This document shows, one piece after another, positions 48,021 to 48,656 of a DNA stretch of 64,000 bases (position 1 is the first letter of the stretch; every line of letters starts with the position of its first letter). Below the pieces are notes generated by a model. That model was given only the letters and a program-made list of their open reading frames with translations. It was not told the DNA's origin and searched no databases. A program made the translations under genes and the position numbers. The DNA is from Escherichia coli (GTDB lineage: Bacteria > Pseudomonadota > Gammaproteobacteria > Enterobacterales > Enterobacteriaceae). The stretch lies in the NCBI RefSeq assembly GCF_050920415.1, contig NZ_CP169309.1, one strand, 5' to 3'.

Positions 48021-48614
48021 TCACTCCTTGAGAAGAGTTTTTATCGCTTCCCCCGCCAGGGCAGCTGTTGCACAGAGTTGTTCGATGGAGTGCCCCTCTC
48101 GTGCCTTCGCAGAAAGCCCAGACATCACGGTACTCATAAAATCAGTCACACATTGTGCGCTTTGTGGATGCCGCCTTGCGATATAGTCATAAATGGTTGT
48201 TTCTGCGGCGTGATAATATTGAACGGCAATACCACGCGCTTGTGGATCATGACTATGAATACCTTCAAGAACCATACAGCCAGCGCAGCCGCCGTTTTGG
48301 CTATATCTGCGCGCCGCTTCTTTTAATACCTCAACCAGGCACTCGCCTACCGGACGATCATCACGAAGAATATCGGCAAGCGGAATAGCTTCCGTACCGA
48401 CATATTCATTGAGTACACGGCTAAATAACCCAGCCTTACTGCCAAAAGCCGCGTAGAGGCTCGGGGGGTTAATACCAAGATAATCAGTAACTTCAGCAAC
48501 ACTGACAGCATCGAAACCTTTTTGGTGAAAAAGCACTTTTGCCGCAGAGACTGCCTGCTCAGGAGCGAAACGTCTGGGACGACCTGGAACGCGAGATTGT
48601 TTTTTAGTGACCAT
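48021..48614 (-). CDS. bdcR: TetR-family transcriptional repressor
   Basis: 197-aa ORF with TetR HTH (AAKVLFHQKGFDAVSVAEVTDYLGINPPSLYAAFGSK), divergent from bdcA. Confidence 0.8.
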   Translation of the reverse strand: MVTKKQSRVPGRPRRFAPEQAVSAAKVLFHQKGFDAVSVAEVTDYLGINPPSLYAAFGSKAGLFSRVLNEYVGTEAIPLADILRDDRPVGECLVEVLKEAARRYSQNGGCAGCMVLEGIHSHDPQARGIAVQYYHAAETTIYDYIARRHPQSAQCVTDFMSTVMSGLSAKAREGHSIEQLCATAALAGEAIKTLLKE

Positions 48615-48656
48615 TACAAAACTTGTTGACAGAAAGTTAAAACAGTTTTGTAATGC
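48612..48656. promoter_or_regulatory. Candidate BdcR operator: perfect 11-bp inverted repeat in the bdcR-bdcA divergent promoter
   Basis: cattacaaaac (48612-48622) and gttttgtaatg (48646-48656) flank a 23-bp spacer containing ttgaca. Confidence 0.45.

Follow-up and report, generated by a model that had tools for sequence, protein, structure and literature searches.

Two candidate palindromic operators for BdcR in the divergent bdcR–bdcA promoter of Escherichia coli

Where might the TetR-family regulator BdcR recognize DNA in the short region that separates its gene from the divergently transcribed bdcA? We addressed this question in a 64,000-nucleotide stretch of an Escherichia coli chromosome (assembly GCF_050920415.1, contig NZ_CP169309.1), here called the window, in which bdcR (48021–48614, minus strand) encodes the 197-aa TetR-family regulator and bdcA (48685–49398, plus strand) its divergent target, a 237-aa short-chain dehydrogenase/reductase (SDR). 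An original prediction, made from the sequence alone, had singled out a perfect inverted repeat between the two genes as a candidate TetR-family operator. The comparison of 78 loci described below indicates that the two arms of this repeat belong to different predicted operators, named O_R and O_A, whose facing halves they form, and do not make up a single operator. The prediction was therefore well aimed in that both arms are very probably BdcR recognition sequences, but it erred in joining them into one operator for one dimer. Our reading, to which we give a probability of about three in four, is that the region carries two separate palindromic operators of ~26 bp for BdcR, each probably serving one predicted dimer.

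The layout emerged from related loci. One genome per species was scanned for BdcR relatives, yielding 80 loci in Alpha-, Beta- and Gammaproteobacteria (78 distinct; ~75 other species), with many of the relatives in other genera at 50–61% identity. A divergent bdcA homologue, 72–98% identical, was present in 80/80 loci (one match, in L071, was partial), and the gap between the genes was nearly always ~70 bp. Read in the orientation of the window, the loci share CAYTACAAAAT at the bdcR ATG, followed by CCTTGAC, a variable stretch, TTTATGTAG-N6-CTACATTAAT, CTCAAGGAG and the bdcA ATG. Extension into bdcR exposed a fourth box: the left side reads TTTTTGTAG-N6-YTACAAAAT, and the region resolves into two tight TGTAR-N6-YTACA dyads. 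Both were found with at most two mismatches in 76 of the 78 loci and with at most one in 56 and are, thus, co-conserved with the regulator. Taken singly and at the same tolerance of two mismatches, the O_A dyad occupied the same place in 76/78 loci and the O_R dyad in 78/78. Positions were fixed, the spacer measured 6 bp in the best match per site and the dyad centers lay 45–50 bp apart (mode 47, E. coli 46), apart from one locus with 55 bp. As a background, three dyads with at most one mismatch occurred in 317 kb of flanking DNA. All four half-sites share one 10-nt logo, TT(T/A)(T/A)TGTAG, with an AT-rich flank outside TGTAG in each box, giving the operator consensus (A)TT(T/A)(T/A)TGTAG-N6-CTACA(A/T)(A/T)AA(T). 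A 26-bp dyad model trained on the non-Escherichia loci only was then scanned over the ~64,000 positions of the window; O_A ranked first (22.9) and O_R second (18.7), with the next score in the whole window at 9.6. We infer BdcR as the protein that binds both sites.

In the window, O_A spans 48644–48669 as AGTTTTGTAA-TGCATG-TTACATAATA, and its core, TGTAA-N6-TTACA at 48649–48664, is the only place in the 64 kb that matches TGTAR-N6-YTACA exactly. O_R spans 48598–48623 as TGTTTTTTAG-TGACCA-TTACAAAACT, with the core TTTAG-N6-TTACA at 48603–48618. The left arm of the flagged repeat is Box1 (48612–48623), the inner (right) half-site of O_R, which consists of the bdcR start codon (CAT, 48612–48614) and the 9 nt of 5′ leader adjoining it; its family consensus is CAYTACAAAAT and its half-site logo aaTTTTGTAaTG. 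The right arm is Box2 (48644–48655), the inner (left) half-site of O_A. Each arm has its partner elsewhere: TGTAA of the right arm pairs with TTACA in Box3 (48660–48664), 6 bp away, and TTACA of the left arm with TTTAG in Box0 (48603–48607), inside bdcR. Core centers are accordingly 11 bp apart within O_A and within O_R, as one-dimer geometry demands (adjacent major grooves, ~10–12 bp between half-site centers), but 35 bp apart between the flagged arms, which fall outside that geometry. When two palindromic sites lie side by side, their inner halves are bound to face each other as inverted copies, and the flagged repeat is, thus, a geometric by-product. It also makes a cautionary case, since the inner halves of two neighboring palindromic operators always give rise to such a wide-spaced 'palindrome'; the analysis replaces a reading of it that was attractive but failed on geometry.

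The repeat itself is real. Its arms, CATTACAAAACT (48612–48623) and AGTTTTGTAATG (48644–48655), are complementary at 12/12 positions around a 20-bp spacer. The perfection claimed originally was borne out, but the proposed 11-bp arm length holds for K-12 and not for the window: MG1655 has C at 48623, its sole difference from the window in 111 bp compared, resulting in an 11+11 repeat with a 22-bp spacer. The 23-bp spacer of the prediction matches neither measurement. The ttgaca hexamer was correctly placed inside the spacer (TTGACA, 48626–48631), and the flanking genes are as described, although the repeat is not purely intergenic because its left-arm CAT is the bdcR start codon. The 181 bp surrounding the repeat recur with 100% identity in O157:H7 and other strains, and within the 77 bp at 48596–48672 the window differs from ~40% of complete E. 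coli genomes. The whole window contains six inverted repeats with perfect 12-bp arms and at most 40 bp between them, versus 0.24 ± 0.69 expected from first-order Markov simulations, arguing that the bdcR–bdcA repeat is not a chance feature.

This perfection and statistical rarity, together with the location in a TetR-type divergent promoter, would suit a single operator that accommodates one BdcR dimer, or else two subunits that span the bdcA −35 element, as would the arm-to-arm period of 32 bp, about three helical turns, which places the arms on the same face of the DNA. We nevertheless regard such an operator as highly improbable. The half-site cores lie 35 bp apart, with a conserved partner for each at a distance of 6 bp, and one dimer of the related repressor CifR covers only 26 bp. 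Outside Escherichia, identity between the inner halves averages 7.4/12 and does not exceed 9/12; 12/12 is confined to Escherichia, with 11/12 in K-12, and the twelfth, outermost pair is polymorphic within E. coli. Spacer content also varies across loci except for the −35 element. One long operator with a 20-bp spacer was rejected in view of the geometry and the unconserved arm-to-arm identity.

With two operators as the preferred reading, the E. coli perfection was judged to be mostly explained by the types of Box1 and Box2 and the polymorphic outer pair, leaving a residual coincidence of ~2–3 positions. Box1 is of the common family type (TTTTGTAATG). Box2 carries an enterobacterial TGTAAT −10 variant, also seen in Leclercia, Enterobacter and Superficieibacter loci, that makes a better sigma-70 −10 hexamer. 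A special cause for the 12/12 match, either template-switch 'correction' of a quasi-palindrome or selection, was considered and judged mostly unnecessary.

The operators overlie a compact promoter region. The predicted bdcA promoter comprises TTGACA (48626–48631, plus strand), a 17-bp spacer and TGTAAT (48649–48654), and the predicted bdcR promoter TTGATT (48675–48670, minus strand), 17 bp and TACAAA (48652–48647, minus strand) (PMC3946193). The pair is one of five bidirectional promoters cloned by the Grainger laboratory, produced both divergent transcripts in vitro and was assigned the same hexamers (PMC12825309). Our consensus promoter and terminator scan of 48450–48850 returned nothing at its thresholds, and the elements used here rest on published work and on the Reg-Seq footprint discussed below. 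Transcription starts fall at ~48638–48641 for bdcR and ~48662–48663 for bdcA; across the five bidirectional promoters studied, divergent starts are 10–23 bp apart (PMC12825309). Box2 contains both −10 hexamers, and O_A as a whole covers these, the bdcA transcription start and the bdcR promoter spacer. The original proposal that occupancy would occlude one or both promoters is supported for the right arm, where a bound protein would block both. O_R spans the bdcR start codon and codons 2–6; relative to the bdcR transcription start it occupies about +16 to +41, and 3 bp separate it from the bdcA −35 element. TTGACA is conserved in the repeat spacer because it is this −35 element, embedded in the family-wide CCTTGAC.

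The Shine–Dalgarno sequences interlock with these promoters as well. Family-wide, that of each gene overlaps the −35 element of the opposite promoter (48624–48631 and 48670–48679). On the other strand, CCTTGAC reads GTCAAGG, at Shine–Dalgarno distance (9 nt) from the bdcR ATG, and CTCAAGGAG reads TTGAG(A). In E. coli, the bdcR-side Shine–Dalgarno sequence is degenerate (ACAAG), and TTGATT of the bdcR promoter overlaps the bdcA Shine–Dalgarno sequence AAGGAG (48674–48679) by 2 nt.

The transcription start sites also bear on the idea that the repeat works as a structure, that is, as a DNA cruciform or hairpin or as an RNA stem–loop affecting bdcR transcription or translation. The single-stranded DNA fold has an energy of −10.5 kcal/mol with z = −3.4, as such an element might. 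Judging from the start positions, neither the bdcR nor the bdcA mRNA includes both arms, the scan of 48450–48850 found zero terminator-like sites, no Rfam match was obtained and arm-to-arm complementarity is not kept elsewhere (mean 7.4/12). A 20-nt loop disfavors cruciform extrusion. A structural role of any kind is, in our view, barely credible. A hairpin function was rejected in view of the start sites, the absent Rfam match and the unconserved pairing.

Indications of a constraint on the DNA came from the coding half of O_R. Among 47 loci with GC content at third codon positions (GC3) of at least 0.75, the first 24 nt of bdcR have 35% GC compared to 70% in the next 100 nt. The half of O_R inside the open reading frame (ORF) keeps its TACA core, which supplies the codon ACA, in most of these 47 GC-rich loci, while ACA makes up only 3.5% of threonine codons elsewhere in these genes. 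This AT-rich stretch with rare codons at the start of the bdcR ORF points to a constraint on DNA rather than protein and makes the predicted O_R a clean example of an operator kept within coding sequence against codon bias.

For O_A, published Reg-Seq data provide a functional footprint. In that work, 160 bp around the bdcR promoter were mutagenized, and one repressor site was reported at −27 to −4 that regulates both promoters (PMC7567609). Under the register window position = 48641 − Reg-Seq position, at which the matrix fits the wild type far better than at three neighboring registers, this site corresponds to 48668–48645. Expression-raising mutations fall at 48668–48661 and are strongest on TGTA of Box3 (48664–48661), in the outer half of O_A. 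The strongest RNA polymerase-type signal, on TTGA (48675–48672), marks the −35 element, and the −10 signal lies on TACA (48652–48649). Scanned over 48560–48740, the Reg-Seq matrix, T-n-T-G-T-A-[G/T]-C, picked out exactly the four boxes, and at the position where E. coli carries A it favors G, the family consensus. At ATGCAT, bases 48659–48656 have a sign opposite to that of a repressor site, with the matrix disfavoring the wild-type bases. We also observed that mutations at 48647–48648, where the bdcR −10 hexamer TACAAA ends, raise expression. Such an increase is expected if a weak −10 hexamer improves toward TATAAT; positions −7 to −5 of the 'repressor' interval, thus, probably reflect an effect on RNA polymerase and not a contact made by a repressor.

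The footprint helps to weigh an account that dispenses with a repressor site and derives the symmetry from the pseudo-symmetric −10 hexamers of a bidirectional promoter and from translation-initiation contexts. That bdcA/bdcR is a verified bidirectional promoter (PMC12825309), that Box2 amounts to a pair of −10 hexamers and that Box1 abuts a start codon would all fit. Box3 and Box0, however, lie outside the −10 and Shine–Dalgarno elements yet carry the same 10-nt logo in an exact 6-bp register, and neither the rare codons in the ORF nor the expression gain from Box3 mutations would be explained. We consider the account distinctly unlikely.

The Reg-Seq authors attributed the mapped site not to BdcR but to NsrR, a nitric-oxide-sensitive Rrf2 repressor, because of its 'known binding location' (PMC7567609), which derives from the chromatin immunoprecipitation on microarray (ChIP-chip) study of Partridge et al. 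2009. This attribution raises the alternative that NsrR acts at the right-hand dyad, with BdcR binding elsewhere or nowhere. Besides the listing of −27 to −4 as an NsrR site, it can draw on the NsrR-like 11-mer AACATGCATTA (48651–48661, minus strand), which matches AAGATGCATTT at 9/11 positions, is centered in the O_A spacer and is found only in the E. coli lineage. Equally good matches are no more frequent in the window than chance predicts (25 seen versus 30 expected), and this one is a single 11-mer with no convincing second half of an 11-1-11 repeat. The ATGCAT core appears in the O_A spacer of one of 74 non-Escherichia loci and is missing from the other 73, whereas the flanking TGTAR and YTACA arms are conserved. 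The footprint, moreover, has the opposite sign at ATGCAT and its positive signal on the TGTA of Box3. Given the Box3 signal, the sign at ATGCAT and the chance-level match, the footprint fits a half-site of the BdcR family better than NsrR. As the main explanation, NsrR is weakened by these data, and we judge it unlikely. Both proteins are compatible, as NsrR control could have been added on top of O_A specifically in E. coli. A fuller version, which we put forward tentatively as possible, is that the Reg-Seq 'NsrR' site is the autoregulatory BdcR operator O_A, with an NsrR half-site, ATGCAT, secondarily written into its non-contacted 6-bp spacer. In that case, two unrelated repressors, one responding to the BdcR ligand and one to nitric oxide, would share 26 bp over the bidirectional promoter of a biofilm-dispersal gene. 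The analysis as such suggests that the site filed under NsrR in Reg-Seq and RegulonDB may be a BdcR site in whole or in part.

On the protein side, the identities proposed for the two genes were confirmed. The bdcR product matches TetR_N (PF00440; E 2.7e-13, residues 23–66, the N-terminal helix–turn–helix) and the bdcA product the SDR equivalog NF009383 (E 3e-145), and identical E. coli DNA is annotated as bdcR and bdcA in RefSeq. For TetR-type regulators, repression of the divergent gene is predicted when the intergenic gap is <200 bp (PMC3511530); the start codons of bdcR and bdcA are 70 bp apart. Two sources cite BdcR as negatively regulating bdcA (PMC6598151; PMC6790063), and the entry for its ligand in a survey of the TetR family reads 'No data available' (PMC6790063). 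Its N terminus contains a basic arm, K4-K5...P10-G11-R12-P13-R14-R15-F16, in which G11, R12, P13, R14 and F16 do not vary across the BdcR alignment.

Combining these features, we propose that the helix–turn–helix would enter the major groove at TGTAR and that, at the outer ends of each operator, the conserved N-terminal G-R-P-R arm would occupy the minor groove where it is narrow and AT-rich. A BdcR dimer at O_A would shut RNA polymerase out of both promoters and, since O_A lies over both −10 hexamers and the bdcA start, would repress both genes. At O_R, a dimer could act as a roadblock that adds to bdcR autorepression, and it may also tighten repression of bdcA; the contribution of O_R is expected to be weak in E. 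coli with its outer half TTTAG. By analogy to the TetR family, a ligand would release BdcR. In the literature searched, no defined BdcR site was found, and the sites and consensus, therefore, appear to be new; a specific 26-bp consensus and two exactly placed candidate sites are now available for BdcR.

Several observations weigh against this proposal in addition to the published assignment to NsrR. The literature searched contained no direct BdcR–DNA binding data. The Reg-Seq register was deduced from the matrix-to-sequence fit and is not a statement of the authors, and the footprint represents one growth condition. At O_R, which has one core mismatch in E. coli (TTTAG), the Reg-Seq signal (48620 and 48617; ~0.0006–0.0007) is at noise level, and its function in E. 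coli is therefore putative. Finally, since both −10 hexamers fall within Box2 and the translation start within Box1, these boxes may be conserved in part for promoter and initiation function.

Variation of the locus provides further context. The bdcR–bdcA region (48596–48740) is absent from ~660 of 5,426 complete E. coli genomes, in agreement with bdcR being an accessory gene (PMC6790063), and is plasmid-borne in three. BdcA is far more conserved than BdcR, with 72–83% versus 49–61% identity outside Escherichia. The nearest BdcR not of the E. coli type is 89% identical (L001), while the next, at 61%, are scattered among Alpha-, Beta- and Gammaproteobacteria. Sequence relationships suggest that the two-gene cassette and its control region may have spread horizontally; if so, the cassette with its ~70-bp control region would have moved as one unit across three proteobacterial classes. 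A natural operator mutant could be represented by L082 (E. coli HCP8S3_I1), in which Box3 TTACA is changed to TTAAA (C>A at 48663), along with G>A at 48625. Three identical copies of the locus in Aureimonas ureilytica (L066, L067 and L068), located at or near contig ends of one assembly, suggest a repeated element or an assembly artefact.

Elsewhere in the window, four more inverted repeats with perfect 12-bp arms, 0–23 bp apart, are present at 253–299, 41924–41947, 51767–51800 and 52224–52254. A possible terminator is the one near 51767–51800, located in the pyrBI region 3′ of the pyrB ORF. Between yjgH and pyrB, at 49982–49993 and 50084–50095, there are two palindromic matches (ATATGCAT/ATGCATAT) to the NsrR-type 11-mer, each scored on both strands.

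Several known systems help to place the proposed arrangement, whose interest is modest and lies in the probable re-attribution of an 'NsrR' site, an operator inside the ORF of its own repressor and a ~70-bp region conserved across three classes. With the bidirectional promoters described by Warman, Grainger and colleagues, bdcA/bdcR shares −10 hexamers that overlap on the two strands and divergent starts lying close together; that work did not address BdcR binding, and the predicted operators would form a layer on top of the bidirectional core. The NsrR half-site (AAGATGCATTT) has a 9/11 match at the O_A spacer, and NsrR is annotated there in the literature, but this match is not conserved outside E. 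coli, is not statistically distinctive and lies away from the repressor-like Reg-Seq signal.

The closest solved relative of BdcR is CifR of Pseudomonas aeruginosa (E 1.2e-18; family profile 5e-29), whose RGRPRAF segment aligns with PGRPRRF of BdcR. One CifR dimer binds each 26-bp operator and inserts an N-terminal arginine into the AT-rich outer minor grooves, and loss of this arginine or of the 10-residue N-terminal loop abolishes binding (PMC10827105). The divergent region holds two CifR operators, one cifR-proximal and one morB-proximal, in inverted orientation (PMC10827105). The BdcR pair is alike in combining a divergently transcribed TetR-family repressor with two operators, predicted in the case of BdcR, in the intergenic region, and the BdcR-family site of 10 + 6 + 10 = 26 bp with TTTT/AAAA outer ends fits the CifR mode, from which we infer one dimer per site. 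In contrast to the BdcR-family sites, which are clear dyads, the CifR sites are mutually divergent with weak repeats, a comparison made by description rather than by sequence. CifR senses epoxides through Cys107; the aligned BdcR residue is Cys113, which is invariant in the family alignment. A further difference is that one predicted BdcR operator runs into the ORF of the repressor.

Transposon Tn10 offers the classical parallel. Its tetO1 and tetO2 are two palindromic operators in the short divergent tetR–tetA region (81 bp versus 70 bp here), through which both the regulator and the target promoter are repressed (PMC3511530), and their inner halves are likewise mutually inverted. The 15-bp tet operators are wholly intergenic, whereas the predicted BdcR sites are ~26 bp long with AT-rich flanks and O_R extends over the bdcR start and first codons. 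TetR-type dual-operator repression of a divergent gene pair is of a textbook kind; the details proposed here for BdcR appear to be new.

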